A stretch of 55,800 bases of DNA from an uncultured archaeon (GTDB lineage Archaea > Aenigmatarchaeota > Aenigmatarchaeia > GW2011-AR5): positions 1 through 55,800 of the forward strand of contig CAYJMB010000001.1 in NCBI GenBank assembly GCA_964371455.1, read 5' to 3'. Under the pieces are notes generated by a model. The model saw only the letters and a program-made list of their open reading frames with translations, did no database searches and was not told where the DNA came from. Of this stretch, positions 12,769 through 47,841 are shown in pieces (position 1 is the first letter of the stretch; the number at the start of each line of letters is the position of its first letter). The translations under genes and the position numbers were made by a program.

Positions 12769-12770
12769 TT

Positions 12771-16165: not shown

Positions 16166-16168
16166 TAT

Positions 16169-27917: not shown

Positions 27918-28980
27918 TATCATAGTATGCAGTCACAACAATGAGGACATTATTTCCAGGTGCCTGGACAGCGTAAAAAAACAAACATTCAAGGATTTTA
28001 ATTGCATTCTGGTTGATGACAATTCTTCTGACGGCACAGCGGATATCGTCAAAAGCAAATACAGATGGGTTAAAATTATAAAGAAAGACGGGCAGACAGG
28101 ACCTACGATAAGCAGGAACACGGCAATAGAACTCACTGAAGGAGAATTCATTGCTACACTCGACAGTGATGTACAGCTGGACAGGAACTGGCTCAGAGAA
28201 CAAGTGAAACTCCTGCAATCAGATGCAAGCATTGGCATAGCAGCTTCTAAAATTCTTTATTCATGGGACACACAAAGAATAAATTCCTGCGGAGGCGGCA
28301 TGACAAAAGAGGGTTTCGGCTTTGACATCCTTTGCGGAGAAGATGTTGGCAAACAAAAAGTTTATCTCCGGCCTGTTCTGTATGGCCACAGCGCAGCGAT
28401 GCTGGTCAGGAGAAAGATGCTGCAAGAAATCGGCATTTTTGACAGCACTTACTTTTACGGCAATGAAGATACGGACATCGGGTGGAGGGCGAACATTGCC
28501 TGCTGGAAGGTGATGTTCAATCCAATGGCAATTGCGTACCATGACGAGAATGCTACAATAAAAAATATGGCATGGAGTACCACGTTTCATGGCACCAAAA
28601 ACAGGATAAGGTCCTTAATTAAAAATTACTCCAGCACAAATGTGATCAAATATTTGCCGATTCACATGCTTATGGTTTTGGGCAAGACAGCAGTCAGCAA
28701 CAACAAATCAGCACGATTAAATGCTATTGCATGGAATACTGCGCATATCTTATCAACACTAAAGGAACGGCAGCATGTCCAGAAAACAAGGAAGATAGGC
28801 GACAAGGATATTATGACACATGTATTTTCCGAGAAACTACCCATGAAAAGAAAACAGCAAAATGACACTTCATTTTTTGCACCAAAAAAGAAGTTAGTGC
28901 TGATATCAACAAAGCTTTATATCACTATCCAAAACATAGTAAAAATCTTGTTTAACTATAACCAGGTGAAAGAATGGTGA
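27904..28980 (+). CDS. GT2-family glycosyltransferase
   Basis: It has IDIIVCSHNNEDIISRCLDSVKKQTFKDFNCILVDDNSSDGT and a DSD (DxD) motif. Confidence 0.75.
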   Translation: MGKIDIIVCSHNNEDIISRCLDSVKKQTFKDFNCILVDDNSSDGTADIVKSKYRWVKIIKKDGQTGPTISRNTAIELTEGEFIATLDSDVQLDRNWLREQVKLLQSDASIGIAASKILYSWDTQRINSCGGGMTKEGFGFDILCGEDVGKQKVYLRPVLYGHSAAMLVRRKMLQEIGIFDSTYFYGNEDTDIGWRANIACWKVMFNPMAIAYHDENATIKNMAWSTTFHGTKNRIRSLIKNYSSTNVIKYLPIHMLMVLGKTAVSNNKSARLNAIAWNTAHILSTLKERQHVQKTRKIGDKDIMTHVFSEKLPMKRKQQNDTSFFAPKKKLVLISTKLYITIQNIVKILFNYNQVKEW

Positions 28981-30398
28981 AGATACTCATATGCGACTTG
29001 CCATGGAAAGGCAAGAAGTATGCAGGCAGGACAGGCATGCGCTGGGCGCATACGTCAAACAAGGAGCCTGTTGTAAGCTTCAGACCGTTTCCGTTTTATC
29101 TTGCCACGACTGCGGCCGTGCTGGAAAACGGGGGACACGAAGTAATGATTCTGGATGCGCTCGCCGAGCGCCTGGTCGACGAAACATTTTTCAAGAGGGC
29201 TGTTAACTTTCAGCCAGATTTTATTCTCGCAGAAGTTCACACACCTTCTTACAACAACGACAGATTTTATTTTGCAGAGCTGAAGAAAGCGACAGGCGCC
29301 AAGAATATTTTTGCAGGGCCGCACACGACAGCCATGCCGGAGCAGGTGCTTAAGGAAAATCCAGGAGTGGCTGATTTTGTTGTGATTTCTGAGTACGATT
29401 TTCTGGCTTTGGACATTGTTGAGGGACGCACTGGTGAAGGCATTGTCAAGCAGCACGAGGTCACAGACATAAACAACATACCATGGCCTGCTAGACATTT
29501 GTTCAAGATGAACTTATATAATGAAGTTTTTTGCAGAGAATACCCAAATATACAATTAATGGGTTCGCGTGGCTGCCCATTTATGTGTACATACTGTAAT
29601 GTATTCACAATGAACAACTTTACCCGCAAACAAAGGACAAGACATCCGAAAGATATATGGGACGAAGCTGAATTTTTAATAGCTAAATATAAACCGAAAG
29701 AGCTCTACTTTGATGACGACATAATAAATGCCACACCAAAATGGTTTGATGCATTTCTCCAAGAGAAGATTGACAGGGGTATTGATATCCCATTCACATG
29801 CATGGGCCACGTAAATATCAGCGAGCAGCTGCTAGAAAAAATGAAACAGGCGAACTGCGTCGGATGGAAACTGGGTATAGAATCTACAGATGATAATGTG
29901 CTCCGGACTCTAAGGAAAGGGACAAATCATGCTATTCAGATGAGAACACTCAGCAAATGCAAGGAACTCGGAATAAAATGCCATCTCAATTTCTGTATAG
30001 GGCTGCCTGGCGATACAGAAGACAGTGTAAGGAAAACGTTGGAATTTGCAGAAACATGGGGAGATCACTATCAGGTAAGCATTGCTGCCCCATTGCCCGG
30101 AACAGAACTTTTTGAGGATGCGCTGAAGAACACGTGGATACAGGAAATAAACTGGGACGAATTTGACGGTATGGAGGACGCCATCATACAGTACCCGCAT
30201 CTGCCTATTGAAACGCTCAAGAAACTGGCTATGAGGGGCCAAAGCAATACGTACAAGAAAATCCTGCTCACGGGAGAGTGGAAGAAATACGTAAAGATGA
30301 TTTACAATGAAAGAGGCGTGGCAGGCGTTGCCAAGCTGGTTTTCATCCGCGGCCCCGGGATAACAAAAGAGATACTGTTTTCTCGCAGCAGTGATTAG
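28974..30398 (+). CDS. B12-binding-domain radical SAM enzyme (intein-free paralogue)
   Basis: It has an N-terminal Rossmann-like cobalamin-binding-type domain. This is followed by GSRGCPFMCTYC (CX3CX2C) and a radical SAM core (ELYFDDDIIN). Confidence 0.75.
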   Translation: MVKILICDLPWKGKKYAGRTGMRWAHTSNKEPVVSFRPFPFYLATTAAVLENGGHEVMILDALAERLVDETFFKRAVNFQPDFILAEVHTPSYNNDRFYFAELKKATGAKNIFAGPHTTAMPEQVLKENPGVADFVVISEYDFLALDIVEGRTGEGIVKQHEVTDINNIPWPARHLFKMNLYNEVFCREYPNIQLMGSRGCPFMCTYCNVFTMNNFTRKQRTRHPKDIWDEAEFLIAKYKPKELYFDDDIINATPKWFDAFLQEKIDRGIDIPFTCMGHVNISEQLLEKMKQANCVGWKLGIESTDDNVLRTLRKGTNHAIQMRTLSKCKELGIKCHLNFCIGLPGDTEDSVRKTLEFAETWGDHYQVSIAAPLPGTELFEDALKNTWIQEINWDEFDGMEDAIIQYPHLPIETLKKLAMRGQSNTYKKILLTGEWKKYVKMIYNERGVAGVAKLVFIRGPGITKEILFSRSSD

Positions 30399-30446: not shown

Positions 30447-31481
30447 ATGTACTATGACATTAGAATGAGATATGCGAAGGAGGAGAAGACAAGGATCAGA
30501 CAAATAGAGGAAGATATACAGCGAGCACTAAAGGAGATCATAAATATTATTAGAGACAAATTCAGCAACTATGTACTTTCTTTCGGGCTTACAGGACCTA
30601 TGGCGCACGGTGAAGGCACTATATTTTTTCAGCAGGATCAAATAACTGGCAGCGATATAGATCTTGCGATTGTGACAAAATACCGTTCGCTTAGAAAACA
30701 GAAAGCACTGGAAAGAGAAATCAAAATAGCATTTTCTTGTTCAGGCTTGGAGGCGGGACCGCTGTTTTTTGCACCGAGCATATTTGATAGGCCTGATCTG
30801 CTCTTTGTGGAATACGCGAAAGCAGGAAAAGTTCTCTTTGGTGAGAAAGTCAGATGCAATAAAGATATAGCTGTCTGGGAAGCTGCAAAGATACTTACAT
30901 CACGATGCGGCGCATTTTTTGATTCCGTTTCATTCAATAGCGGAATAAAGTTCTCTCAGAAATTTCCTTATGCATGGTCAAAATCTGTCATGGCTGCTGC
31001 AGAGGCTATGCTCGTGCTGGAAAACAGATATGCATTCTCCATTCAGGCACGCACGATGAAGATAAAGAATTCCAAATATGCGAAACTCATGCCTGGATTT
31101 CTAAATCTCTATCAAAAGGCATATACATGCAGGTATTCTGGAAGGATGCCGCAACAAAAAGGTCTTATTGAGAAAACAGCAAATTTTATCTCTTTCGCGT
31201 TTGAAGAGACAGCCAAGAAGCTGGCTGAGAAGAGCGGGAGAGATATTGCAAATCTCAGTGCGCCGTTTCCCAGCATAATTTCCACACGCTTTTTCTATTT
31301 CATAAATATGCTTAAGAATGAGCATCTAAGCATCCCGCTCTCCGAACCTTTGGTTAAAGAATTCGCAGAAATGGGAAAAATGTTTGGACAGCTCAGATCC
31401 AGTGAGATTCCAGAAGAAAAAACAAGGCAGCGCGTTGTACGATTATGGAAACATGCAGAGAGATTCTGGTTGCCTTATTAA
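30447..31481 (+). CDS. Pol-beta-superfamily nucleotidyltransferase-fold protein with helical C-terminal domain
   Basis: GLTGPMAHGEGT...GSDIDLAIV fits the hG[GS]-x(n)-D-x-D minimal NTase signature. The rest is alpha-helical and has no motif I recognise. Confidence 0.4.
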   Translation: MYYDIRMRYAKEEKTRIRQIEEDIQRALKEIINIIRDKFSNYVLSFGLTGPMAHGEGTIFFQQDQITGSDIDLAIVTKYRSLRKQKALEREIKIAFSCSGLEAGPLFFAPSIFDRPDLLFVEYAKAGKVLFGEKVRCNKDIAVWEAAKILTSRCGAFFDSVSFNSGIKFSQKFPYAWSKSVMAAAEAMLVLENRYAFSIQARTMKIKNSKYAKLMPGFLNLYQKAYTCRYSGRMPQQKGLIEKTANFISFAFEETAKKLAEKSGRDIANLSAPFPSIISTRFFYFINMLKNEHLSIPLSEPLVKEFAEMGKMFGQLRSSEIPEEKTRQRVVRLWKHAERFWLPY

Positions 31482-31502: not shown

Positions 31503-32654
31503 TTACGCCACTGTTGCCATTTTTATAAACTTGAATAATTCCACTACCTTGATCTCTTTCTTACGCACAGGCAAGTTAGTCACAAAAATTCCTTTAGAAT
31601 CCGGGAACATCGGATCAAAACCATGCCATCCCTTCAGGCCGCCTTTTATCGGCGCAAAGTAATCCGGGAAGATGCGCGTTTCAGGGTCTGCGAGAAATAT
31701 CAGATCGCCATAACGCTTTTTATTTTTGAAGTCTATTCTGTACTTTTTGAGCAATTTGCTGTCAAGAAATGTTATTCCTTTTACACTTGCCAGTTTTGAT
31801 ATGATGCGCTGTTTTATTTCTTCTGTTGATGGCCAGAACCTTGCCATTGTAGAGTCATAGAATGCAATGTAATCTCTGCCGTTTTTTAGCCCTGCTGCTG
31901 ATAAAATTTTTTGGATGTTAATAAAATTCTTCACTTCGCACATGCCATGGTCAGAAAACAGCAGGAAATTTACTTTGGTGCCCATCTGCTTTGCATTTTC
32001 AAGAAGTTCCTTTATTTTCTTATCGGCCTTCATGAGATAGTCCACTACCTGCCTTGAAAAGGGACCATGGATATGGCCGAGCTCATCAGAGCGATATAAG
32101 TAGAAGAAATCTACCTCGCTGTCTGTAAGAGACATGTCTTCTAGCCTGTTGTACTCGCCAAAATAGTCTGCGGAATCCGATTGCTTTGAGTAGGTGATGC
32201 CTTTTCTGTCCAGCATTTCAAATATTGTGCCTGTGGTCTCCAAAGGATTATTGGAGAAGTAAGGCGCCATTTCAATTGGAATTGCAGGAGGCAGGGGCAC
32301 AACTTTATTTTTGATGAATTTTGGTAGAAGTTTCCTGCAACTAGGAAGCAGGAAATACGGGGCTTTCATTGCAGCTAAAACATTTTTTCTGATGAAATGC
32401 GTCGGCAAAAATTTCAATGACCATGTCCATTTAAACGGTGAGTGCTCAGGATCATAATAAAATGTTGTGAACATACCATGCTCGTCCTGATACTTGCCGC
32501 TCCAGATGCTGGGGTGGATGCCTATGCTGTAGCCCAGCATAGAAACAACAGCAGCATAAGAATGCTTTTTGGCAAAGGCAGTTGTAAAAGGCATGCTTAC
32601 TTTCATCTGTTTTGGGTTCACGCCATCGATCAAAATCACTATTGTTTTTGCCAT
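31503..32654 (-). CDS. Alkaline-phosphatase-superfamily enzyme (type I phosphodiesterase/nucleotide pyrophosphatase-like)
   Basis: It has an N-terminal IVILIDGVNP metal/nucleophile region and an LLFSDHGM motif. Confidence 0.6.
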   Translation of the reverse strand: MAKTIVILIDGVNPKQMKVSMPFTTAFAKKHSYAAVVSMLGYSIGIHPSIWSGKYQDEHGMFTTFYYDPEHSPFKWTWSLKFLPTHFIRKNVLAAMKAPYFLLPSCRKLLPKFIKNKVVPLPPAIPIEMAPYFSNNPLETTGTIFEMLDRKGITYSKQSDSADYFGEYNRLEDMSLTDSEVDFFYLYRSDELGHIHGPFSRQVVDYLMKADKKIKELLENAKQMGTKVNFLLFSDHGMCEVKNFINIQKILSAAGLKNGRDYIAFYDSTMARFWPSTEEIKQRIISKLASVKGITFLDSKLLKKYRIDFKNKKRYGDLIFLADPETRIFPDYFAPIKGGLKGWHGFDPMFPDSKGIFVTNLPVRKKEIKVVELFKFIKMATVA

Positions 32655-32688
32655 GCTAATATGCTAAATGATAATTTTTAATAGCAAT

Positions 32689-33327
32689 TTAGCTGCGACG
32701 AGAAGTTTTCCTTACCACTGTCAGCAAGAACGGCATACCTGCGACACTGATCTTGCGCGTAACGTGTGCATAAGGGAGCTTTCTTAGATACCCTTCTATG
32801 CGCGTTCCCGTATAGCCTACCTTTTCAAATATGACAAGGCTGCCATTGCTCTGCAACATTGTATCTATATTTTTTGCTACCTGACCGACATACTTTTCCG
32901 GAATATAGGGCAGTATACCAATGCATAAGATGAGGTCATATTTCCCGCTGCAGTAACTGATGATATCTTGCTGGAGGAACCTGACTTTTCTGTTGTTATG
33001 TCTGGCTACTTTCAGCGCTGTTGCAGAAATATCAACTGCTGTTACAGTTGGCACGGTATCTGCAAGCTTCCCCGCTATAAAACCATAGCCACAACCTAAG
33101 TCCAGTGCAGACCTGTATCGCCTACGAGGGATGTATGTGACAACATCTTCTGCAATTCTTTTGTGGTATTTAAGGGAACCGAAGCCCTTTCTCTTTTTGT
33201 ATGTATGCTCAAATCTCTGTCTCCTCAGGAAGGAAAATCTGTTCAGGCCGTATCTATACAACCTGCTCGCAAACCTGTAGAGCCTACACATACAAACAAC
33301 TCTGTGCAGAAACAATAAGAACTTCAT
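32689..33327 (-). CDS. Class I SAM-dependent methyltransferase
   Basis: It has the motif I sequence ALDLGCGYGFIAG. Its start overlaps the stop of the upstream DUF4346 gene. Confidence 0.7.
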   Translation of the reverse strand: MKFLLFLHRVVCMCRLYRFASRLYRYGLNRFSFLRRQRFEHTYKKRKGFGSLKYHKRIAEDVVTYIPRRRYRSALDLGCGYGFIAGKLADTVPTVTAVDISATALKVARHNNRKVRFLQQDIISYCSGKYDLILCIGILPYIPEKYVGQVAKNIDTMLQSNGSLVIFEKVGYTGTRIEGYLRKLPYAHVTRKISVAGMPFLLTVVRKTSRRS

Positions 33328-33737
33328 TTAGGGACTTTCTTTTGCAGCCACAACACTTCAGGAAATTCTCCAGATACCGAACCGTCCTGTACGTATTTTA
33401 CGCCCAGCTTCATGCAGATCCAGGCGCGTGCCAGTTCCTTGCCAAGATAGGCTGCGTGATCCATGCGCGAGACGATGCCCTCATCAATTATCCGCTGATA
33501 AATATGATGAGGAAGTCTGCCTTTCACCAGTATTTTTATGCTGTTGACATCGTCGTATTCACAAATACCTACTTCTATTTCTTGCGTTTCTTCATTAATA
33601 CGAATTAGAAAATAGCCGACAGGATCTGCTATCCATTCGTACGTCTTGTCGTCCGCATTGATTACTTTTGCGTTGTTCCATTGAATTGCATTCCAAATAT
33701 ATTTCTTTACATCTTCTGCCATTTTAATCATCTTCAA
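33324..33737 (-). CDS. Stand-alone DUF4346-like protein
   Basis: DPVGYFLIRINEETQEIEV...HAAYLGKELARAW...KYVQDG matches my recollection of the DUF4346 signature (DPxGYF...HAAYLGRELxxAE...YxQD). This domain is normally found at the C-terminus of pterin-binding/MtrA-like proteins. Confidence 0.5.
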   Translation of the reverse strand: MKMIKMAEDVKKYIWNAIQWNNAKVINADDKTYEWIADPVGYFLIRINEETQEIEVGICEYDDVNSIKILVKGRLPHHIYQRIIDEGIVSRMDHAAYLGKELARAWICMKLGVKYVQDGSVSGEFPEVLWLQKKVPK

Positions 33738-33740
33738 AAC

Positions 33741-35915
33741 TCAATAGTATGTCATCCCTTCTTTTATGGCCTCGCGCCCCTTTTTACAGAACTCTAAAAT
33801 CTCTTCAGCAGTAAGATTATTATGTTTGATAAGAATCTGGTTTGCGCCACCTTTGCCGACCTGGTAGTAATTTTCCCAGTTGCTGTCTTGCGGCTTTATG
33901 ATTTCTATGCCAAAATTCTGCGGATTTTCCCAGAGCGGAGTTGCTGGAAAAGGCGTGAGTGGATAGAAATCGCAATATTCTATTTTTAAAGACTTTGCAA
34001 ATTCGATTGTCTGCTGTATGGTTTCCCTTGTTTCGCCGGGCAGGCCTATAATAAAGAAGCCTTTTACCTTAATGCCCAGGTCATGGCACCAGTTCACTGT
34101 TTGTCGTGTTCTTTCCAGACTGGCGCCTTTGCGGATATTCCTGAGAATCTGTTCATTGCCGGACTCAAAACCGAAGCTCAAGACGTCGCAACCTGCTGAT
34201 TTCATTGCTTTGAGCAGCTCATAATCTACGAGGTCCACGCGCGTAGTGGCGCGCCACTTGACCGGCGGTAGGCGTTCTTTTATTAATCTACAGATTTCAT
34301 AGACACGCTGCTTGTTGAATGTGAATATATCATCAACAAAATAAAATGCATGTATGTTGTACTTGTTCACCAAGAGCTCAAGCTCGTTTACGACATTTTC
34401 AGGACTTCTCGGCCGCCACTTCTTTATTTTGGCAGAGCCGCAGTTATGAACTAGCACATAATTAGCAAAAAAATTGTTGTGCGGTTTACAATTCAGGTTG
34501 TAAACGACCGTTTTTCCATAAAAATTTTTTATCTTTTTAACTTTCATGCCATTTGTAATGAAACTGCCTACCTTGTTTATAATGTGATCTGCTCCTTTTT
34601 GCAAGTCATGGCCCCAAACAACTAAAGTTTCATAGCCATTGTCCAAATAATATTTTAGTTTTTTCTCATCTTTTTCTGTCTGTCCGCTAAAGCCACAATC
34701 CTTGCATTTATGCCAATAACAACCAAAAAATTCTATTATCTTTTTCTTTTCTACGTGTACCCAGTCGGGAAAGAAAGTCCCTACAGGTCTTTCAAAAAAT
34801 GAAGTATATAAAAATTGATTCGGGAACTTTTCCTGAATAATTTCATTCAAGCGTAATTCTTCTTTATTCTCTATGCGCGCCCTTACTTTATGAAATCTCT
34901 CCCTCTGATTTTCTGGAGGATTCGCCATAGGATTATTTGTCAGTGCAATAACTCTCTGCCTTTCGCTAACCATCCGGCGACCTGCCTCTGTTTCTAGATA
35001 ATAAACAATTTCTTCACGTCCCCTCGTTTCCTCTTCTGTGGGAATATGAACTGGCATTTTTTTATTGAAAGAAATTTTATCTTTCGGGGTGATATGATGC
35101 AAGATATTGCCTGGTTTTATTTTGCCTGCTGCAACCCATTCTCCAGCGATGTAAAATGGATGTTCTGGAGTCGTTTTAATTAATGTGCCATCTTCCAGAG
35201 TTATTTCCAACATTTCATTGACACTTCTTTTAAATACTTCCTTCACTTCCGTTTCAACCAATAGGCCACCATCAAATGCAATCATTTTGTCTCCTATTTG
35301 GATATCTTTTATTTTTTTGTTGGGCGAGTTTGATGTGATAACCGTCGTGTTGCCATCCAGACAAAACACGCATCCATAAACACAGCCACGACTGGATGAG
35401 ATTGTAATCGCTTTCTCACCGCCAATAAGCATGGAGTACCTTTCAAGCTTGATGCCCTCGTAATCAGGGAGTGGCAATGTGTCCAGATTTTCTATCGGCG
35501 ACGACACTATTATTTTGATGTTCGGCCTTTCTTCTATAATTTTTTTAAGTCCGTTTTCCCCATCACCAACTACAACATAGTCAAATGCTTCAAGGGTTGG
35601 TTTTTCATTTGGGATGTCTGTGACGTGATTTCCGCCAGCAACAAGAAGACCCTGGAAGCCGGCAGCACGAATCTCTTTTGCCATGGTTATGCAGTTTTTA
35701 TAATTTGGCGTTGAAACAGAAATGCAGACAATATCAGGCTTTTCACATTTTATTGCTTCCATCAACTGTTCTTTGGTTTCGTGATTCATGTCAAATAGCT
35801 CTGTTTCATGGTCTATGCTTTTGAGATAAGAAGACAGGTAAGCAATTCCTAAAGGAGGGCGGTCTCCAGGATTCTCAAGAAACCAATCATGCGGGCTGAT
35901 AAGAAACGCTAACAT
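33741..35915 (-). CDS. B12-binding-domain radical SAM enzyme interrupted by an intein
   Basis: The N-extein is a B12-type domain ending ...SSRGCVYGCVF. The C-extein reads CGSAKIKKWRPRSPENVV...FYFVDDIF..., a standard radical SAM core. The 307 aa insertion carries intein blocks. Confidence 0.8.
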   Translation of the reverse strand: MLAFLISPHDWFLENPGDRPPLGIAYLSSYLKSIDHETELFDMNHETKEQLMEAIKCEKPDIVCISVSTPNYKNCITMAKEIRAAGFQGLLVAGGNHVTDIPNEKPTLEAFDYVVVGDGENGLKKIIEERPNIKIIVSSPIENLDTLPLPDYEGIKLERYSMLIGGEKAITISSSRGCVYGCVFCLDGNTTVITSNSPNKKIKDIQIGDKMIAFDGGLLVETEVKEVFKRSVNEMLEITLEDGTLIKTTPEHPFYIAGEWVAAGKIKPGNILHHITPKDKISFNKKMPVHIPTEEETRGREEIVYYLETEAGRRMVSERQRVIALTNNPMANPPENQRERFHKVRARIENKEELRLNEIIQEKFPNQFLYTSFFERPVGTFFPDWVHVEKKKIIEFFGCYWHKCKDCGFSGQTEKDEKKLKYYLDNGYETLVVWGHDLQKGADHIINKVGSFITNGMKVKKIKNFYGKTVVYNLNCKPHNNFFANYVLVHNCGSAKIKKWRPRSPENVVNELELLVNKYNIHAFYFVDDIFTFNKQRVYEICRLIKERLPPVKWRATTRVDLVDYELLKAMKSAGCDVLSFGFESGNEQILRNIRKGASLERTRQTVNWCHDLGIKVKGFFIIGLPGETRETIQQTIEFAKSLKIEYCDFYPLTPFPATPLWENPQNFGIEIIKPQDSNWENYYQVGKGGANQILIKHNNLTAEEILEFCKKGREAIKEGMTYY
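34443..35363 (-). mobile_element. Class-1 intein (307 aa) with Vsr-like PD-(D/E)xK nuclease domain
   Basis: Block A is CLDGNTTVIT, block B is TTPEHPFYI, and blocks F/G are VVYNLNCKPHNNFFANYVLVHN, followed by a +1 Cys. Boundaries were verified at the nucleotide level (tgt at 35363-35361; aac|tgc at 34445-34440). The internal PDWVHVEKKKIIEFFGCYWHKCKDC...LDNGYETLVVWGHDL resembles the Vsr core. Confidence 0.8.
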
Positions 35916-35936
35916 TATTCCAACACCTCTGATTCA

Positions 35937-36632
35937 TCACTTTCTTGCTTTTATTATAAATATCATGGCAAATCTGTCAGGCACTGTATTGGCGAGCCGT
36001 ATTTTCAAACCAAAAGGAAGAAGGTGCAAGCCATACGCTACTGTATGTATACAGAATTTTTTAATGCTTTTAAGCTTAATCATGTCTTTGATTGTTTCTT
36101 TTTCAAGGAAGCCTGGCGTATATTCAATTTCTTTTACTTTCAGGCCTGCATCTTTTAAAGCCTGCAGTGCATCGGTAAGATACCATCTTTTTTTATGATG
36201 GACACCGTCTGCCGGCAGGTTTGGAACACCGAGTACCAGCATGCCACCTGGCTTGAGGCATTTTCTTATCTGCCTGAGCATGCTCACAGGTTTTTCTATA
36301 TGCTCAATTGTCTCAAAACAGATAACAATATCAAATGAGTTTTCACGCACAGGATACCTGCCCTGCACATCTGACTGGATTGTTTTGAAGCCGCGTCGGC
36401 GTGCTTCTGTTAAACCAGATTTTGATATGTCCAACACAGTTGCTTTTTTCACACCCAGCCATTCAAGAAACTGCCCATTGCCACCGCCAACATCAAGAAC
36501 CTTAAGATCATCAGAAGGCTTGATAAAACCCTTGATGTGGCTATAGCGCAAGTCGTAGTAATCCATACCGCGCTGTATGTGTTCCTCTTCCCAATAATGT
36601 TCATAATATTTTTCGTAATCAAAGTGTTTCAT
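35937..36632 (-). CDS. Class I SAM-dependent methyltransferase
   Basis: It has the motif I sequence VLDVGGGNGQFL and DIVICFETIEHI. Confidence 0.75.
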   Translation of the reverse strand: MKHFDYEKYYEHYWEEEHIQRGMDYYDLRYSHIKGFIKPSDDLKVLDVGGGNGQFLEWLGVKKATVLDISKSGLTEARRRGFKTIQSDVQGRYPVRENSFDIVICFETIEHIEKPVSMLRQIRKCLKPGGMLVLGVPNLPADGVHHKKRWYLTDALQALKDAGLKVKEIEYTPGFLEKETIKDMIKLKSIKKFCIHTVAYGLHLLPFGLKIRLANTVPDRFAMIFIIKARK

Positions 36633-37356
36633 TCTTCAGCACCACAAAGGCTTCCCTGAGTGTCATGAACTCTACTTTTAGTTTCGCTAAATTTTCTATC
36701 AAATCTTTAAATTTCGCAAAATTTTTGTACTGATGATAGGCATGCAAACCGAGAACAAATATGCCATTTTTGGATGCCACGCTCTTGATGATGTAGTTTT
36801 TTATGACAGAATAATCGTCTTCGTTCACGTCCATCTGCCACTGTCTGGGCAGGCGCAGCCAAGGTATCTCGTAAAGTGCGCCAAAATGCATGAGCTTTTT
36901 TACTGGATAAAATGTGCCTATAGAAGAGTCCAAGACAAAACCCGCATTTTTTACATTTTCTATTGATTGTTTATCCTTTGATGTCCATGGAAAACGCCAT
37001 GACTTGACGTTACCATCGTACATGCTAAGTTCTTTGTAGCACTGCAATGCACTCTGATAATTTTTCTCCCTTTCTTCTCTGGAGTGAGAGATGCTATGAC
37101 CCCCTATTTCATGCGCCATTCCCACCAGCTGCTTAATAATTTCTGGCTCTGTCTGGTTGATGGTAAGAAAGAAGGTTGCCGGAATATTCTTGGATTTCAG
37201 ATATTCTGCCAATTCAATGCTTTTGCTGTCCACGTAGTCATCAAATGTCAACACAACGATTTTTCTTTTGGTCTGTCTGGAGAATTTGTAGGCCGGGTAT
37301 CCTGACAGCCTCTTGAAAAAGAAATATGCCCTGATGAACACAGGACTCACCACCAT
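36619..37356 (-). CDS. Polysaccharide deacetylase (NodB/CE4-like)
   Basis: It has VVLTFDDYVDS (TFDD motif) and GGHSISH (His motif). Confidence 0.7.
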   Translation of the reverse strand: MVVSPVFIRAYFFFKRLSGYPAYKFSRQTKRKIVVLTFDDYVDSKSIELAEYLKSKNIPATFFLTINQTEPEIIKQLVGMAHEIGGHSISHSREEREKNYQSALQCYKELSMYDGNVKSWRFPWTSKDKQSIENVKNAGFVLDSSIGTFYPVKKLMHFGALYEIPWLRLPRQWQMDVNEDDYSVIKNYIIKSVASKNGIFVLGLHAYHQYKNFAKFKDLIENLAKLKVEFMTLREAFVVLKNETL

Positions 37357-38396
37357 GCAACCTGCGCGGCGCGATAAAGCTTACTACAACCCCGGCACAG
37401 AGCAACTTTGTCACCCATTTTCTGCTGGTGCAAATCTCTTATTTTAGAATAGAGTTCCCCGTTCCATACTTCGGATAAACTCCGTTTGCTGGCGTCGCCT
37501 AAAATAACCTTTCCGTCAAAATCCACACAACATAATGCGACTTTCCCGCTGCTCAGCACAATCATTTCATTCCACAAGCGCCTGCAGGGATAGACGATTT
37601 TTGATCTCTCCACCTCAAGCTCACCCTCGTGCCCTTCCCCCTCCCTGTTGTCAACAATACCGAAATCATATCCATCTACTATGCCATCCCAGAGATTCTT
37701 GAACAAATCAAGCTCATGATAGTTCTCCTTCTGAATCGTACAGTTGACTTCGATCATTGGCTCTACCATACCGTGCCTATTTCTCTCCTCCACCAAATTC
37801 CTTATGTTAGATACGACTACATCAAATTTCCCATTGACACGGATTTTCTCATAAGTTTCCTTTGTTCCGCCGTCGAAACTGAATATAATTTTATTGGGAG
37901 GGTTTGCAAGAAGCTTGTTAATCTTTTCACTGTTCAGGACAGTGCCATTTGAGTAAAACATGACATACATATCCTGGCCCCTCACGAAGCTTATGCGCTC
38001 AAAGATCAGGTGATCGAGAAACGGCTCGCTGTAAAAAGAGAGTATTATTGTGTTTACACCCATTTTCTTCGCGTCAAGCACGATCTTCTTGAATAGTTCC
38101 ATAGGCATGACGGTCTTCTGCCGTGTCATGTCCTTGTACGGACACATAATGCATTTCAGATTGCAGAGGTTGAATGTTTCTATGGAGATCGCCTGCGGGA
38201 TCTGGACATCCTTTAGAACAGCATTTATCCTTCTTGTGTATATCTTGTCGTATGCAATGTAAAACGGGTACCTGTTGATCAGTGCAAACATAAGTTTTTT
38301 CAGGCTGTAATGGTTGTTCGCAAACTGCTTGAAGGAATGATAGAGTTTTTGCATAATAATCACCAATTTCTCGCTAAATGGGCAACATATAATCAC
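37347..38396 (-). CDS. Radical SAM enzyme with SPASM/twitch-type C-terminal Cys-rich domain
   Basis: It has CNLKCIMCPY (CX3CX2C). The C-terminus has CCVDFDGKVILGDASKRSLSEVWNG...CRGC. The real start is possibly M15 (38354). Confidence 0.75.
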   Translation of the reverse strand: MIICCPFSEKLVIIMQKLYHSFKQFANNHYSLKKLMFALINRYPFYIAYDKIYTRRINAVLKDVQIPQAISIETFNLCNLKCIMCPYKDMTRQKTVMPMELFKKIVLDAKKMGVNTIILSFYSEPFLDHLIFERISFVRGQDMYVMFYSNGTVLNSEKINKLLANPPNKIIFSFDGGTKETYEKIRVNGKFDVVVSNIRNLVEERNRHGMVEPMIEVNCTIQKENYHELDLFKNLWDGIVDGYDFGIVDNREGEGHEGELEVERSKIVYPCRRLWNEMIVLSSGKVALCCVDFDGKVILGDASKRSLSEVWNGELYSKIRDLHQQKMGDKVALCRGCSKLYRAAQVAWW

Positions 38397-38522
38397 TAAA
38401 TGGAATAGACTTAAAAATCAATGTCTCCCTGTATATTATAAAGGCTTTTTGGGGCGAACAATGAACTAAATGCAAAACAAAGTTTCCAACTATTTTTAAC
38501 CTTTGCTGTGCAGTGAATTCCA

Positions 38523-39287
38523 ATGACAAGATTAAGCGCGATAGTACTCACGCACAATGCGAGCGGCACGATAAAGGACGTGCTAGCGCAGCTGGACAAA
38601 GCCGCCGACGAAATAATCATAGTGGACGATAACAGCGACGACAACACAACAGAGATCGCCAGAAAGCTAGTACCCAAAGTGAAAATAATAAATCACAAAC
38701 TCACCAACCACGGGGAGCAGAGGAATATAGGCTACGCACATGCAAGCGGAGAATGGCTTGCATGGGTAGATGACGACGAGATATGGGATGACAACCTCGT
38801 AGAGGAAACCAAAAAAATAAAGGAGCTTGACGGGTACGGATACGACGGCTTCGAGTTCCTGTTCAAAACGCCGGTCCTCGGGAATGTTGTCGAGGATGAG
38901 TGGCATATGCGTTTATTCAGAAAAGGGAAAGGGAAAAATACCTCCGCTTTCCATACAACGGTTGAAATGCTACCAGGCTCCAAAATAAAGCGGGTAAGAA
39001 ACGGGCATGTACTGCACCTGACATGGCATGGAGTGGAGCCGTGGCTCAGGAAGCATATATTTTACTCAAAAATGGACGCCGACAGCTACCTTGAGCGCGG
39101 GCTGAACGTCAGCCCCTGGAAAATGATTGGCATGTTCTTTTTCGTATTCTTCAAAAGGCTCCGGCTTGCAAGGTTCGGCATATCGGGAATCACATGGGCA
39201 TTCGCGGCGAGCACTTCGTGGCTTTTCAAGGCGTGCTTTTTGGTCGAGGCGCGGCAAAAGAGAAAACAGCGAATAAGAGCTAAGTAA
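38523..39287 (+). CDS. GT2-family glycosyltransferase (small, WaaE/KdtX-like size)
   Basis: It has LSAIVLTHNASGTIKDVLAQLDKAADEIIIVDDNSDDNT and DDDE. Confidence 0.75.
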   Translation: MTRLSAIVLTHNASGTIKDVLAQLDKAADEIIIVDDNSDDNTTEIARKLVPKVKIINHKLTNHGEQRNIGYAHASGEWLAWVDDDEIWDDNLVEETKKIKELDGYGYDGFEFLFKTPVLGNVVEDEWHMRLFRKGKGKNTSAFHTTVEMLPGSKIKRVRNGHVLHLTWHGVEPWLRKHIFYSKMDADSYLERGLNVSPWKMIGMFFFVFFKRLRLARFGISGITWAFAASTSWLFKACFLVEARQKRKQRIRAK

Positions 39288-39363
39288 TTTGGGGATTTAC
39301 ATGAGAAGTTGGTTCAGTTGTCACTAACATGAGCTGTCAAGTCTTTTGGATATAAATTCTTAA

Positions 39364-39678: not shown

Positions 39679-39693
39679 CTTTACAGCTTACGG

Positions 39694-42358: not shown

Positions 42359-43429
42359 CTATAACTTTACCAAATCCTTGGATGCTTCTATAACATCTTC
42401 TACTTTCAGATTCTTCATGTGTTCATGATTACATTCTGGAAACTGGGCGCGAAATGGCAGGATGCATGGGAGGCCGCTGTCTTTTCTCAGACTGACGCAG
42501 TGCTGACCATAAGGGCCAAAGCGTTCCGGTACGTTGGGGCCGAAGAGCCCTACAGTTGGGATACCCATGGCAGCTGCTATGTGCATGGGGCCGGAGTCAT
42601 TGGCTATCACTAATTTCATTTTTGAGAATAGGTACGCAAGCTCATTAATGGAAAGATGGCCGCTAAGGTCTTTTATTCTGTTTCTATACTTACAGAGGCT
42701 GATGATTCTTTTGTTTATGTCCTTTTCATTTTCAGCACCAACCAGATAAACAGCCCAGCCCCTGCTTGCGAAAAAATCACAGATCTTTGCAAAATTCTCC
42801 TCAGGCCATCTTCTTGTTGTGGATGTAGATGCAGAGCCTGCATGTATGGCCAGAGCGTTTTGCTGAAATTTTATTGCGGACGGTTTGGAGAATACCGGGA
42901 CAAGCGCTTTTGGGGCAGGAAAGTACGAAAAAGCGGAAAATATCCTGTAAAAAGACAGCACTGCATGTTCGTTCTCGTTAATTTTGACCGAGCACGTGTA
43001 GAGATGACGGCGATTGTCGAGGCCATAGCGTTTCTGCGCGCCAGAAAGAGCGCTGAGCACAGCAGAGAATTTCATATATGGATCTGCATCAATTGCAACA
43101 GAGAACCGGAATTTTCTTATGGACAATATTGTTGAGATGGCTTTGAAGGGATTAGTGAAATTAAAGACAACAACCTCATCTATGAATTTCTGATTTTCAA
43201 AAACTGCTTTGTTCTCCTCGGTGCAGATTACTGTTATTGTATGGCCTTTATCTTTTATGGCTTTGATGCATGGCAACACTAAAACACTCTCGCCAATTGC
43301 CCATAGTTTTATGATGAGGACATTTTTGTTCGCTGCATTATTTTGCAAGAATGGCAGGAGCAGCCAGCACAGCATATAAAGAAACATGCCAACATACCTG
43401 TCCAGCATACGCAAAATTTTTGGCTGCAT
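42359..43429 (-). CDS. GT9-family glycosyltransferase (heptosyltransferase-like), third copy
   Basis: It has NVLIIKLWAIGESVLVLPCIKAI and DLSGHLSINELAYLFSKMKLVIANDSGPMHIAAAMGIPTVGLFGPNVP. Confidence 0.7.
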   Translation of the reverse strand: MQPKILRMLDRYVGMFLYMLCWLLLPFLQNNAANKNVLIIKLWAIGESVLVLPCIKAIKDKGHTITVICTEENKAVFENQKFIDEVVVFNFTNPFKAISTILSIRKFRFSVAIDADPYMKFSAVLSALSGAQKRYGLDNRRHLYTCSVKINENEHAVLSFYRIFSAFSYFPAPKALVPVFSKPSAIKFQQNALAIHAGSASTSTTRRWPEENFAKICDFFASRGWAVYLVGAENEKDINKRIISLCKYRNRIKDLSGHLSINELAYLFSKMKLVIANDSGPMHIAAAMGIPTVGLFGPNVPERFGPYGQHCVSLRKDSGLPCILPFRAQFPECNHEHMKNLKVEDVIEASKDLVKL

Positions 43430-43433
43430 AACA

Positions 43434-44219
43434 TCATTTCCCGTCTGGAGAAGGCGGAGGAATTATCAGATTATCGTGCGCCAACTTGTTTGCCTCTTCG
43501 TATGCCTGTAGCGTGCCGATGTCTATCCAGAATGTTATCTTTTCTGTAAAACCGGCAAGCTTACCTTTTGCAGCAAGCAAGGGGAAAAGACTATCCTCTA
43601 TTTTGATTTCCCTGTCCTCTACCAGCTCTTCTACTTCATCTAATTCAAGAATATAGTACGCAGCGTTTGCCAACAGCGATTCAGGAACACGGGGCTTTTC
43701 AACGAATTTTTCTATCAGCGTAAAGCCGACCTCTTTTTTGATATTGGCTACCCCAAGGCGCTTTGCATTCTCTTCCGTGACTTCAAACAAGGCAACAGTT
43801 GCTGATGTGCCCAGGGCAGCGCGGCATTCTTTATGATAATCCAGCAGATCGGCTACGTTCACGTCAGAAAGGCTGTCCCCATAGGCGACGACAACAGGAC
43901 CTGATTGCAGGCCGCATTCTCTTAAAACTTTTTTTAAATCACCTGCTGTTTCTTTCTGTTCTGTCCTGACCGTCCTGATTGCTCCGCTGTATTTCTCACC
44001 CAGATACTTTTCTATGCAAAAGGCCTGGATTCTGGATAATTCATCTATGTTGCCTGCTATTGCCACTATGATTTCGTCTATTTCGCTGCTTTTTTTCAGG
44101 TTGCCTATGACCCAATCTATGATGGGAACACCTTTCACGGGGAGAAGAGGCTTAGGCACTCCATAAGTAAGCGGCCGCAACCTTGTGCCCTTGCCTGCAG
44201 CAAGAATTATAGCTTTCAT
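43434..44219 (-). CDS. Sugar-1-phosphate nucleotidyltransferase
   Basis: It has the canonical loop MKAIILAAGKGTRLRPLTYGVPKPLLPV, then YGDSLSDVN and EKFVEKP. Sugar specificity cannot be determined from the sequence. Confidence 0.8.
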   Translation of the reverse strand: MKAIILAAGKGTRLRPLTYGVPKPLLPVKGVPIIDWVIGNLKKSSEIDEIIVAIAGNIDELSRIQAFCIEKYLGEKYSGAIRTVRTEQKETAGDLKKVLRECGLQSGPVVVAYGDSLSDVNVADLLDYHKECRAALGTSATVALFEVTEENAKRLGVANIKKEVGFTLIEKFVEKPRVPESLLANAAYYILELDEVEELVEDREIKIEDSLFPLLAAKGKLAGFTEKITFWIDIGTLQAYEEANKLAHDNLIIPPPSPDGK

Positions 44220-44510
44220 CTAACAACCTCCAGCACCAAATCTCCGAGCGTTTGGAAAATGAATGTTCATGTATTTACTGCATCCCTTTAGGGCAGTGTC
44301 TTTCGACCATATCTCTTCTATTTCAGAGGCTTTTGATTCGCTGTGAACGCCAATAGCCAGCTGAATAGTGTTGTCAAATAATGCAGCAAAAAGTGAGATA
44401 ATCGGTGATAGTGGAGACGTTGTTGCGTTACGTATCCCCAAATCAACTATTGCTTGCTGGGCTGCTTGTTCTGTGTAAGTTCCTTGAGGCCCGAGGTATC
44501 CTATCTCCAT
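44220..44510 (-). pseudogene. Prephenate-dehydratase-like relic (96 codons)
   Basis: MEIGYLGPQGTYTEQAAQQAI matches the PDT N-terminal signature (xxxYLGPxGTFxxxAA). The product is far too short, and it lacks the catalytic TRF region and the ACT domain. It is wedged between ugd and the NTP-transferase gene. Confidence 0.35.
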
Positions 44511-44514
44511 ATAA

Positions 44515-45819
44515 TCACCAGCAAACTCCTTCAGAACCTGAGACCTGCGCCTTGTCAAGGATGCAGCGGCCTTCTATGATGATTTTATTTTTCATAGAAG
44601 AAAAGTCGCTGTCCGCAAGCTCAGAAAATTCTTCCCATGCCGTCAGGATGAGACAGGCGTCTGCACCTTCTAGGGCTTCTTTTATAGAACTGACGTACTT
44701 TACAGTAGGAAATATCTTTTTCATGTTTTCATTTGCGAGAGGATCGTAAGCATAGATGATGGCATTTAGCTGGCGGAGCTCGCGGATGGTGTCAATAGCA
44801 ATAGAATCCCGGACATCGCCTGTGTTTTCCTTGAACGCCAGACCAAGAAGGGCTATCTTTTTTCCTGCAGGATTGATTTTGGTTTTCAGGATCTCTATGA
44901 TCTTTCTTTTCTGGATTTCGTTTGCTTTCATAACTGCGTCCAGCACATACGATGGCTCATTTTTCTCCCTGAAGAGAGAAGTCAGGGCCGAAATGTCCTT
45001 TGGGAAGCAGGAGCCACCGAAGCCGCAGCCTGCATTGAGGAAATAGGGGGATATGCGCTTGTCGTAACCCATACCGCGCGCAACTTCATAGATGTCAATG
45101 CCAAGCTTCTTGCAGAGGTTGCCCAATTCATTGATAAATGTCACCTTGGTTGCGAGGAATGCGTTAGACGCGTACTTTATCATTGCCGCTGTTTTTAGAG
45201 ACGTCCGCATGACAGGCGCGCCGAAATCCGCGTAGAGATTTTCAATGACATCGCCACTTCTTTTGTCAAATTCGCCAATGACGATGCGGTCCGGGTTCAT
45301 GAAATCGTGAAGAGCGAAACCCTCGCGCAGAAACTCCGGGTTCATGGCGATGCCGAAATCTGTGCCAGCGCGCTTGCCTGATGCCCTTTCTATAATTTTT
45401 GCAGCCTCTTCTGCTGTGCCTGGGAGAACTGTGGATTTGATGCAGATGACATGGTAAGCATTTTTGGTTTTAATCGCAGCAGCAATAGCATCAGCAGCAC
45501 TGGCGATCTGGCTCACGTCTATGGACCCATCCGGCTTTGACGGCGTACCGACGCAGATGAACGTTATGTCCGAGTTCTGGACTGCGTGTGTATAATCGGC
45601 AGTTGCAAAAATGAGTTTTTTACCAAGCGCTTCCTTGAGGCTGTCTGCTATATTTTCTTCGTAGAATGGCGGAATGCCTTTATTTATGTCGTTGACTTTC
45701 TCCTCATCCCTGTCGATACAGATACAGCTGTGACCATGATGGGCGAGACCTAAAGCAGTGCTCAAGCCTACATAACCTGCGCCTACTATGGAGATTTTCA
45801 TGATTATCTTCTTTAGCAA
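44515..45819 (-). CDS. ugd: UDP-glucose/GDP-mannose dehydrogenase-family enzyme (UDP-glucose 6-dehydrogenase-like)
   Basis: It has KISIVGAGYVGL, a catalytic FGGSCFPKD motif and a C-terminal UDP-binding domain. The likely start is M7 (45801). Confidence 0.85.
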   Translation of the reverse strand: MLKKIIMKISIVGAGYVGLSTALGLAHHGHSCICIDRDEEKVNDINKGIPPFYEENIADSLKEALGKKLIFATADYTHAVQNSDITFICVGTPSKPDGSIDVSQIASAADAIAAAIKTKNAYHVICIKSTVLPGTAEEAAKIIERASGKRAGTDFGIAMNPEFLREGFALHDFMNPDRIVIGEFDKRSGDVIENLYADFGAPVMRTSLKTAAMIKYASNAFLATKVTFINELGNLCKKLGIDIYEVARGMGYDKRISPYFLNAGCGFGGSCFPKDISALTSLFREKNEPSYVLDAVMKANEIQKRKIIEILKTKINPAGKKIALLGLAFKENTGDVRDSIAIDTIRELRQLNAIIYAYDPLANENMKKIFPTVKYVSSIKEALEGADACLILTAWEEFSELADSDFSSMKNKIIIEGRCILDKAQVSGSEGVCW

Positions 45820-45906
45820 TAGATGGAACTTTTTTAAGCTTCGCTCCCTGCTTATATTTTAGGACAAAAAGTGAACTATATATTTGGATACTGTCAGTTT
45901 TTGGGA

Positions 45907-46434: not shown

Positions 46435-46451
46435 GACAACACCATGTACAC

Positions 46452-47066: not shown

Positions 47067-47392
47067 CTAACCATCTCCTCTGTTCTTCCAGAAAATATTG
47101 AATTGGCCTGTCGTCTTTTGGGTACAATCGTGTCAATTCGGGTCCAATGCCCAAGTCTTTCAGTACTTTTGTCGTTAGTTGCTACAATTAATATTCCTCC
47201 GTTAGCGTGTCGCTGCAAGAACTCTTTTGCCTCTTCCAAGGCATTTGCGTGATGTGGTCTCACTGGATTGAAAGTGCCTACAGCTATTCCTGATTTCTTT
47301 CCTCGTTCCTTATAACTAGCAATTAATGTTCCAGCCTTATACAGGCTTATTACTTTTTCCATTTGCATACACTTCCAGTACCTTTTCAACAA
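47060..47392 (-). pseudogene. Truncated, degenerate paralogue of the adjacent heptose-1-P adenylyltransferase (cytidylyltransferase fold)
   Basis: IAVGTFNPVRPHHANALEEAKEF...ILIVATNDKS parallels the neighbour's VTTNGCFDILHIGHVRYLAEAKKL...VLMVGMNSDVS. However, the HxGH motif is RPHH and the C-terminal half is missing. It overlaps both flanking genes. Confidence 0.35.
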
Positions 47393-47837: not shown

Positions 47838-47841
47838 TTAA

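Follow-up and report, generated by a model that had tools for sequence, protein, structure and literature searches.

A proposed composite operon of radical SAM and other putative tailoring enzymes in the surface-glycan island of an uncultured DPANN archaeon

Radical S-adenosylmethionine (SAM) enzymes tailor sugars in the pathways to the antibiotics butirosin, blasticidin, apramycin and gentamicin and in those to hopanoid and calditol lipids. We are not aware of such tailoring in the biosynthesis of archaeal surface glycans or N-glycans, nor of a described archaeal Agl pathway with radical SAM enzymes, GT9 heptosyltransferases or NodB deacetylases. Here we analyse a group of seven genes in 55,800 nucleotides (nt) of DNA from an uncultured archaeon of the Aenigmatarchaeota (GenBank assembly GCA_964371455.1, contig CAYJMB010000001.1, positions 1 to 55,800; this whole stretch is called the window below). 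Two of the seven genes encode radical SAM enzymes. Among the closest characterised enzymes, BtrN oxidises a carbinol of an aminocyclitol (PMC9012708), BlsE decarboxylates a glucuronic-acid nucleoside (PMC3715490) and AprD4/AprD3, a pair of radical SAM diol dehydratase and NADPH reductase, performs the C3'-deoxygenation of apramycin (PMC5461906). Enzymes of the twitch type are defined by one auxiliary cluster and those of the SPASM type by two, and anSME and other SPASM enzymes as a rule carry both (PMC9012708).

We propose, with a probability of roughly 0.6, that the seven genes form a clade-specific composite operon for the sugar tailoring of a cell-surface or N-linked glycan, which joins two older and recurrent sub-modules. 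Sub-module 1 consists of a twitch-type radical SAM enzyme and a NodB deacetylase, with or without a methyltransferase, and sub-module 2 of a B12-binding radical SAM enzyme with a DUF4346 protein and/or a short-chain dehydrogenase/reductase (SDR). The seven-gene unit is a recent lineage-specific assembly of these two pairs and accessory genes. A preliminary description of the locus had spoken of a possible undescribed glycan-modification module: the operon does lie in a glycan island, but the seven genes are not conserved as a module. Its remark that the combination matches no nameable pathway agrees with the literature we searched, which holds no description of the module, of either sub-module or of radical SAM sugar tailoring in archaeal surface or N-glycan islands. 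The features of the operon, with protein lengths in amino acids (aa), are:

37347..38354, minus strand: twitch-type (BtrN/BlsE-like) radical SAM enzyme, 335 aa, first gene of the operon (Pfam Radical_SAM and SPASM; longest open reading frame (ORF) 37347-38396)
36619..37356, minus strand: NodB/CE4-family metal-dependent deacetylase, 245 aa, 10-nt overlap with the upstream gene (Polysacc_deac_1, E 1.5e-15)
35937..36632, minus strand: class I SAM-dependent methyltransferase MT_a, 231 aa, 14-nt overlap with the deacetylase gene (Methyltransf_11/23/25)
33741..35915, minus strand: B12-binding-domain radical SAM enzyme B12rSAM1, 724-aa precursor with a 417-aa extein (B12-binding, Intein_splicing and Radical_SAM)
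34443..35363, minus strand: intein within B12rSAM1, 307 aa, precursor residues 185-491 (Intein_splicing)
33324..33731, minus strand: stand-alone DUF4346 protein, 135 aa (PterinBD-DUF4346, PF14251, E 3e-19; longest ORF 33324-33737)
32689..33291, minus strand: class I SAM-dependent methyltransferase MT_b, 200 aa (Methyltransf_25/11/NodS; longest ORF 32689-33327)
31503..32654, minus strand: probable cytoplasmic NPP-type phosphodiesterase/pyrophosphatase of the alkaline-phosphatase superfamily, 383 aa, last gene of the operon (Phosphodiest, E 5e-25)
38432..38443, minus strand: TATA-like box CTTTATAATATA, a putative archaeal promoter read from the sequence

The ORFs and Pfam domains bear out the seven co-directional minus-strand genes (31503-38354, or 31503-38396 on longest ORFs) with the domains first described for them. 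On longest-ORF coordinates the spacing from the first to the last gene is -10, -14, +21, +3, -4 and +34 nt, that is, overlaps of 4-14 nt and a widest gap of 34 nt; the tight packing claimed earlier is thus seen, but not its upper limit of about 22 nt. On identical public contigs (L001-L003) gene callers use shorter starts for the twitch enzyme (335 aa), the DUF4346 protein (135 aa) and the second methyltransferase (200 aa). The longest ORF of the twitch gene reaches a GTG at 38396, whereas its ATG at 38354 lies a short way downstream of a Shine-Dalgarno-like GGTGAT site. For DUF4346 the longest ORF begins with TTG and the callers use a later ATG. The box CTTTATAATATA lies about 80 nt upstream of the ATG at 38354, inside a divergent intergenic region of 126 nt. 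Scans of the window for tRNAs and Rfam families gave no RNA genes.

The whole arrangement is syntenic in an Aenigmatarchaeota metagenome-assembled genome (L004/L010; 72-95% identity per protein) and, without MT_b, on a 369-kb JGI contig (L038/L042; 59-91%). In a third relative (L122; twitch enzyme 69% identical) synteny extends to the limit of the contig, through MT_a. Since the same gene order recurs in independent assemblies, with protein identities of 65-90%, it is not due to chance. At 40-58% identity only gene pairs stay linked, and seven-gene linkage beyond the genus level was not encountered. Conservation of the neighbourhood therefore holds for close relatives, whereas further out the operon separates into twitch enzyme plus NodB (plus methyltransferase) and B12-binding radical SAM enzyme plus DUF4346 or SDR. 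MT_b, which is missing from the otherwise syntenic L038, is dispensable, and homologs of the phosphodiesterase were found only in close relatives among the loci fetched; these two genes are clade-specific or dispensable.

Sub-module 1 was found in DPANN archaea and in a Parcubacteria bacterium, with twitch enzymes of 40-51% identity. The NodB gene accompanies the twitch gene in four loci (L040, L041, L122 and JGI 3300072015). In L040 a heptose block and UDPGdh-NTP-GT9 genes are directly followed by NodB, twitch enzyme and methyltransferase; the Parcubacteria locus L041 has the order twitch-GT1-NodB-SDR, with a GT2 and a B12-binding radical SAM gene nearby; and in JGI 3300072015 NodB lies 2.3 kb from the twitch gene, among glycosyltransferases, a sulfotransferase and a B12-binding radical SAM gene. 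A further locus (L123; JGI 3300009008 Ga0115649_1000824, 1-17035) carries a 40%-identical twitch gene between a Sulfatase/Phosphodiest gene and a B12-binding radical SAM gene, and has no NodB. It also encodes a methyltransferase and two B12-binding radical SAM enzymes in all. Genes for a phosphoenolpyruvate (PEP) mutase-nucleotidyltransferase fusion, a phosphonopyruvate decarboxylase and a nucleotidyltransferase-aminotransferase fusion follow at a distance of a few kb, and the locus is likely a phosphonoglycan cluster which has tailoring enzymes in common with the window.

Sub-module 2 is seen with B12rSAM1 orthologs of 45-58% identity, which have an adjoining SDR gene in L039, L012, L014, L015 and L018 and a DUF4346 gene within two genes in L039, L082, L088 and L017. 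None of these orthologs has twitch, NodB or phosphodiesterase genes nearby. In two proteins (P0147, P0149) the B12-binding radical SAM enzyme and an SDR are fused, and the fused SDR matches best the SDRs that stand next to the orthologs. Every neighbourhood examined for a twitch or B12rSAM1 homolog is a glycan cluster. Four of the loci with DPANN-type orthologs (L011, L013, L017, L018) come from records titled 'uncultured Methanosarcinales archaeon'; their gene content is Woesearchaeota/Nanoarchaeota-like, and the titles may be binning or taxonomy errors.

The first gene had been described as a SPASM-domain radical SAM enzyme at 37347..38396. Its position and its radical SAM core (CNLKCIMC, that is CX3CX2C; PF04055, E 2.6e-15) are as described, but it starts at 38354 and, judged from its cysteines, is better described as a BtrN-type twitch enzyme with a predicted single auxiliary [4Fe-4S] site. 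Seven cysteines are invariant across 37 homologs: C64/C68/C71 of the core and C257, C275, C320 and C323. The latter follow the twitch pattern (C...GxxxxC...CxxC). From the full SPASM pattern (CX9-15GX4C...CX2CX5CX3C...C) the protein has only the first half and the terminal CxxC; it ends 12 residues past this CxxC and lacks the CX2CX5CX3C motif of a second cluster. Sequence matches in the PDB were to BtrN only, with all four auxiliary-cluster cysteines aligned. In a Foldseek search with the AlphaFold2 (AF2) model (pLDDT 90.6) the best matches were BlsE (1.2e-13) and BtrN (1.5e-13), closely followed by SuiB, CteB, DesII, EpeE and anSME. Among the NCBIfam equivalogs for tungsten-cofactor, mycofactocin, PQQ, heme d1 and sactipeptide enzymes, the top score was 112 bits for TIGR04317, with a cut-off of 380.

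The notion that SPASM enzymes usually act on peptides or cofactors and are rare in glycan clusters does not fit an enzyme which has the four BtrN-type cysteines and whose nearest matches are sugar- or cyclitol-acting. As BtrN and BlsE act on such substrates, the location in a glycan cluster has precedent and is no argument for a peptide substrate. The carbohydrate-biosynthesis context is shared with both enzymes, and a UDP-glucose 6-dehydrogenase, which BlsE-type chemistry would need, is linked. However, identity to BtrN and BlsE amounts to 17-19%, and the archaeal enzyme has a helical N-terminal extension of 50 residues. BtrN and BlsE belong to actinomycete or Bacillus antibiotic clusters, whereas the family described here resides in primary surface-glycan islands of DPANN archaea and of bacteria of the Candidate Phyla Radiation (CPR). 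It also has a consistent NodB partner, which is present with neither of the two.

CE4 enzymes are recognised by a motif set which comprises the catalytic Asp and the Asp-His-His metal triad (TFDD, H[ST]xxH), RxPY and LxH. In the NodB protein (PF01522, 57.7 bits, cut-off 23.1) the motifs are intact, as VVLTFDD, GGHSISH, WRFPW and LGLHAYH (TFDD, HSxxH, RxPW and LxH). The nearest solved structures are peptidoglycan N-acetylglucosamine (GlcNAc) deacetylases. MT_a, which follows NodB also in L004, L038 and L122, reaches no NCBIfam cut-off. The phosphodiesterase at the end of the operon matches PF01663 with 89.4 bits over profile positions 1-342 and shows the metal motifs DELGHIHGP and SDHGM as well as a Ser at the nucleophile position, as read from the sequence. 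Its nearest structures are the bacterial NPP 2gsn and ENPP6/1, in alignments that span residues 173-371 only.

B12rSAM1 combines an N-terminal B12-binding Rossmann domain (PF02310, E 3.5e-18) with a radical SAM core (PF04055, E 6e-27) and thus has the domain architecture of class B radical SAM enzymes, as seen in the C-methyltransferases GenK, Fom3 and QCMT. The substrate of Fom3 is nucleotide-activated, and a similar substrate is plausible for B12rSAM1. On the level of curated families the extein scored best with HpnJ (TIGR03471; 183.6 bits, cut-off 577.6). BchE (153.5 bits), ApyD (134), PhpK (133), rSAM_ocin_1 (107) and the Sden_1168 P-methyltransferase (102) followed, all below cut-off, and AprD4 (NF033070) gave 99.7 bits with a cut-off of 500. 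None of the seven operon proteins reaches any curated NCBIfam cut-off, and the three radical SAM proteins of the window, of which the third (B12rSAM2) is treated below, fall far short of every characterised cofactor or RiPP (ribosomally synthesised and post-translationally modified peptide) family; membership in such a family would have spoken against the preliminary description.

In the family-profile ranking against the PDB, AprD4 (3e-28) came before 9CCB (3.5e-22), OxsB (6e-21) and TokK (2e-14). The entry 9CCB is the methylase QCMT, and AprD4 is set apart from B12-dependent enzymes as 'unrelated' (PMC12931638). Because its closest solved relative is grouped in this way, cobalamin binding by B12rSAM1 is not to be assumed. 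A rank of AprD4, 9CCB and OxsB above TokK, TsrM and CysS was considered as a sign of a non-methylase and was dropped, since 9CCB is QCMT. The likeness to AprD4/AprD3 lies in this best sequence match among solved structures and in the SDRs that adjoin or are fused to the orthologs. However, the AprD4 family score is low, QCMT matches nearly as well, and the SDR genes of the window are 8-10 kb away in a convergent operon. For the class B methylases, in turn, QCMT is the second-best PDB match but no curated methylase model is reached, and unlike them the B12rSAM1 family has a DUF4346 or SDR partner. Sequence similarity does not tell whether B12rSAM1 methylates its substrate or rearranges or dehydrates it. 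That the B12-binding enzymes methylate is not to be taken for granted, as the nearest characterised relatives include non-methylases (HpnJ, BchE, AprD4, OxsB) as well as methylases (QCMT, PhpK).

The intein of B12rSAM1 has the boundaries GCVYGCVF|CLDGNT...VLVHN|CGSAK (C185...HN491|C492). It matches PF14890 (Intein_splicing) with E 7e-15, and its endonuclease segment is weakly DUF559/Vsr-like (E 0.019). The insertion is located directly before the third Cys of CX3CX2C, which serves as the +1 residue. As the intein splits this motif, the cluster site is complete only after splicing, and the activity of B12rSAM1 would be strictly conditional on splicing. Orthologs without intein in L004 and L038 have 417-419 aa and 86-90% identity and match the 417-aa extein. 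In a 39%-identical homolog (P0100) another intein, which has an HNH_3 endonuclease, follows the second Cys and thus lies two residues closer to the N terminus. The two inteins look like independent invasions of one iron-sulfur motif.

For the DUF4346 protein (AF2 model, pLDDT 86.8) no sequence match in the PDB was obtained, Foldseek found no match in the PDB (best E 1.4), and nothing was found in the literature searched. A profile search recovered 1,855 representative clusters. Among 44 long members, fusion partners are a single-cluster ferredoxin (17), the corrinoid-binding MtrA domain (6) and the BtuF-type Peripla_BP_2 domain (2), and about one ninth of the 150 best representatives are fusions of about 190 aa, with the ferredoxin N-terminal and DUF4346 C-terminal; P0026, P0036 and P0290 are among the fusions of the family. 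These partners suggest an accessory for corrinoids and/or electron transfer. The immediate neighbours (n=121) are heterogeneous: Radical_SAM (5), the peroxiredoxin AhpC (4), GT2 (4) and also serine hydroxymethyltransferase (SHMT), SufBD and ThyA-dihydrofolate reductase (DHFR). The B12-binding radical SAM enzymes are the most frequent of them, yet a small minority.

The operon sits in a glycan island with AglB, Wzx, ADP-heptose and UDP-glucuronate genes, in an Aenigmarchaeota-like (DPANN) genome whose closest relatives carry the label Candidatus Aenigmatarchaeota. Besides STT3, Wzx and SDRs the island holds three GT9 and four GT2 genes, a complete ADP-heptose pathway and an AglM-like dehydrogenase. 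The features around the operon that matter here are:

28974..30398, plus strand: second B12-binding radical SAM enzyme, B12rSAM2, 474 aa (Pfam B12-binding and Radical_SAM)
30447..31481, plus strand: conserved 344-aa protein, possible Pol-beta-type nucleotidyltransferase (weak Polbeta match, E 0.13)
38523..39287, plus strand: GT2 glycosyltransferase, divergent from the operon promoter region (Pfam Glycos_transf_2)
42359..48885, minus strand: sugar-precursor block (NCBIfam)

On the plus-strand flank, STT3/AglB, a Wzx-type flippase, two SDR epimerase/dehydratases and GT9-GT9-GT2 precede B12rSAM2 and the 344-aa protein; the second B12-binding radical SAM gene stands at the end of this convergent Wzx-SDR-SDR-GT9-GT9-GT2 operon, where it had been placed before. 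It scores 185.9 bits with HpnJ, again under the cut-off, and is 91-95% identical in L004 and L038. The 344-aa protein is always paired with it and is kept in the same two loci. It shows a GxxG...SDIDL motif, while Pfam and NCBIfam gave nothing at E<=0.001. Several radical SAM paralogs of the B12-binding type also occur elsewhere: a DPANN glycan island (L006 7917-19331; GCA_964373415.1) holds three within 12 kb, together with a HIT-family gene, DUF4346, five SDRs and two PMT-type glycosyltransferases, and similar expansions are seen in the glycan islands of L020, L029, L032 and L033.

Beyond the operon start follow GT2, methyltransferase, GT2, nucleotidyltransferases, GT9 and nucleotide-sugar dehydrogenase genes. 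The divergent GT2 keeps its position in L004, L038 and L122. In the order of transcription, the sugar-precursor block encodes the HldE kinase domain, the HldE adenylyltransferase domain, GmhA, GmhB, an AglM-like UDP-glucose 6-dehydrogenase, a sugar-1-phosphate nucleotidyltransferase and a GT9, so that the complete ADP-D-glycero-beta-D-manno-heptose pathway is encoded in the window. The adenylyltransferase domain (rfaE_dom_II, 186.7 bits, cut-off 181.5) and GmhB (186.7, cut-off 178) pass NCBIfam, whereas the kinase domain and GmhA are clear yet below cut-off. The dehydrogenase scores 475 bits with AglM and 460 (cut-off 190) with the NDP-sugar dehydrogenase subfamily. This block is linked to the pair of twitch enzyme and NodB in four lineages. 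The earlier picture of an AglB/heptose island, with AglB/STT3 at 19797 and heptose genes at 45907-48885, was thereby confirmed. Like the archaeal Agl clusters (AglB, AglM, AglF, AglP), the island unites AglB/STT3, a flippase, an AglM-like dehydrogenase, nucleotidyltransferases, glycosyltransferases and SAM methyltransferases; in the literature searched, no Agl pathway with a radical SAM enzyme, a GT9 heptosyltransferase or NodB was found.

Gene order, domains, catalytic motifs, conservation and glycan context are taken directly from these data, whereas the substrates and all chemical steps of the following proposal are drawn by analogy. NodB would remove the N-acetyl group from an N-acetylhexosamine or N-acetylhexosaminuronate residue or from a nucleotide sugar. 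In the twitch enzyme, a 5'-deoxyadenosyl radical would abstract a hydrogen from a sugar carbon and the second electron would pass to the single auxiliary [4Fe-4S] cluster; a keto-sugar as with BtrN, a decarboxylated uronate as with BlsE, or an epimer may result. The methyltransferase of sub-module 1 could cap the freed amine or a hydroxyl. The substrate of B12rSAM1 might be a nucleotide sugar or a sugar residue, which would undergo cobalamin-dependent C-methylation or else a radical rearrangement or dehydration of the kind known from HpnJ, OxsB or AprD4; in other lineages the adjacent or fused SDR reductase would complete this step. DUF4346 may assist in corrinoid handling or as electron relay. 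MT_b and the NPP-type phosphodiesterase are probably late clade-specific additions, and the latter possibly cleaves a nucleotide or phosphodiester off an activated intermediate.

Several observations weigh against a composite sugar-tailoring operon of this kind. The analogies to BtrN, BlsE, HpnJ and AprD4, from which every chemical step is taken, are distant (15-20% identity; TM about 0.55-0.6), with family scores far under the cut-offs, and the Foldseek E-values of the peptide-modifying SuiB and CteB nearly equal those of BlsE and BtrN. The neighbourhoods stem from about five independent lineages per sub-module. With regard to DUF4346, 43 metagenomic loci with a length of 5 kb or more were compared, and just 7 have a B12-binding radical SAM gene within 6 kb; by this figure and the heterogeneous neighbours, DUF4346 was rejected as an obligate partner of these enzymes in general. 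In some DPANN genomes DUF4346 stands beside thymidylate synthase and DHFR or SHMT (L008 8620-10360; L043 222-1957), a folate context which fits the 'PterinBD' label and is in tension with a purely corrinoid role. Finally, AglB/STT3 (19797-22325, plus strand) is broken by a single in-frame TAA (20991-20993) with an ATG directly after it. The first ORF (398 aa) holds the STT3 N-terminal domain, and the second (443 aa) matches AglB_core below threshold (E 0.09). The gene may be truly split or be a pseudogene, or the assembly may be wrong at this point; with the stop, N-glycosylation itself may be impaired and the target may instead be a lipid or polysaccharide.

A lipid target is also the core of an alternative which we regard as unlikely, a glycolipid head group of the hopanoid HpnI/HpnK/HpnJ or calditol (Cds) type. 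Here the GT2 would add GlcNAc to a lipid, the deacetylase would free the amine and an HpnJ-like B12-binding enzyme would contract the pyranose to an ether-linked cyclitol. The HpnK deacetylase family differs from NodB. The clustering of GT2 (38523-39287), deacetylase and B12-binding radical SAM enzyme does resemble HpnI-HpnK-HpnJ (PMC13459092), HpnJ is the top NCBIfam model of both B12-binding enzymes, and the ring-contracting OxsB is among the best PDB matches. However, the HpnJ scores of about 184 bits are less than one third of 577.6, with BchE, PhpK and QCMT-type models comparable; in the different lineages NodB goes with the twitch enzyme and not with the B12-binding one, whose orthologs go with SDRs and nucleotide-sugar genes; and AglB and a Wzx flippase are in the island, while scans of the window gave no hopanoid or GDGT (glycerol dialkyl glycerol tetraether) genes. 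A phosphorus-containing substituent of the glycan (phosphonate or phosphodiester, e.g. aminoethylphosphonate), on which the B12-binding enzyme would C- or P-methylate, the methyltransferases N-methylate and the NPP-like enzyme transfer or trim a phospho group, appears quite improbable. L123 couples twitch, alkaline-phosphatase-superfamily, methyltransferase and two B12-binding radical SAM genes with PepM, phosphonopyruvate decarboxylase and an aminotransferase-nucleotidyltransferase fusion, an NPP-type enzyme ends the operon, and the extein has similarity to PhpK and the Sden_1168 P-methyltransferase. The scores of these P-methyltransferases are, however, far below cut-off, a Pfam scan of window ORFs with 150 aa or more (short overlapping antisense ORFs excluded) gave no PEP mutase or other phosphonate gene, and outside the close relatives the phosphodiesterase is linked to neither sub-module. 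The phospho-linked sugars suggested earlier have as their basis one NPP-like gene, which is not conserved with the other operon genes.

The same gene enters another reading, which we consider even a little less probable: the twitch enzyme as an anSME-like maturase that forms formylglycine from an active-site Ser or Cys of the alkaline-phosphatase-superfamily enzyme. Both gene types share the operon, in L123 a Sulfatase/Phosphodiest gene lies immediately upstream of the 40%-identical twitch homolog, anSME is among the Foldseek matches (E about 2e-10), and some sources label homologs 'AslB'. But anSME gave no PDB sequence match at E<=1e-3, the cysteines suffice for one auxiliary cluster only, and L040 and L041 have twitch enzyme and NodB and no alkaline-phosphatase-superfamily gene. 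Sulfatase-type maturation takes place at a C/S-x-P-x-R motif, which is missing from the NPP-like nucleophile region YSIGIHPSIWSG (YSIGIHPS). By cysteine count, missing target motif and lineage distribution, anSME-type maturation of the phosphodiesterase was rejected. Least probable by far is a RiPP or cofactor maturation cassette that came by chance into a glycan island, in which the SPASM-like and B12-binding enzymes would modify a small peptide. Many RiPP maturases do belong to both enzyme families, ApyD and rSAM_ocin_1 give scores of 134 and 107 bits, and SuiB and CteB are close Foldseek matches. Yet a precursor ORF was looked for beside the twitch gene and no plausible one is adjacent: 38352-38522 holds no credible short ORF, gene callers call none in L001-L004, and the intergenic region has only a 51-aa TTG ORF that crosses the promoter region, besides ORFs on the strand opposite to real genes. 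The operon is also devoid of protease, transporter and RiPP recognition element genes, and every RiPP family score is under cut-off. Since there is no precursor ORF, no family membership and only glycan contexts of homologs, this reading is poorly supported and already largely refuted.

As tiny episymbionts, DPANN archaea and CPR bacteria presumably attach to their hosts by means of surface glycans. If the operon is a composite for sugar tailoring, the recurrence of uncharacterised radical enzymes in their glycan islands would point to unseen sugar structures. Going further, one may speculate that both groups share two undescribed sugar-acting radical SAM families which diversify surface glycans: a NodB-coupled twitch family that oxidises, epimerises or decarboxylates amino or uronic sugars, and an SDR-coupled or SDR-fused B12-domain family that C-methylates or deoxygenates nucleotide sugars. 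In this full form we hold the idea to be doubtful. The twitch-NodB and B12-SDR pairs provide two enzyme families that lend themselves to study in vitro, and the fusion data give a first testable functional lead for DUF4346.

The rest of the window encodes archaeal housekeeping functions (Cdc6, PolB, SecDF, HMG-CoA synthase, RtcA, TyrRS). Beside the operon, the convergent GT2 and methyltransferase genes are separated by a non-coding gap of 406 nt (39288-39693), in which an uncalled ORF of 83 aa without a Pfam match lies on the minus strand (39360-39611); in the relative L004 the corresponding gap measures 8 nt.

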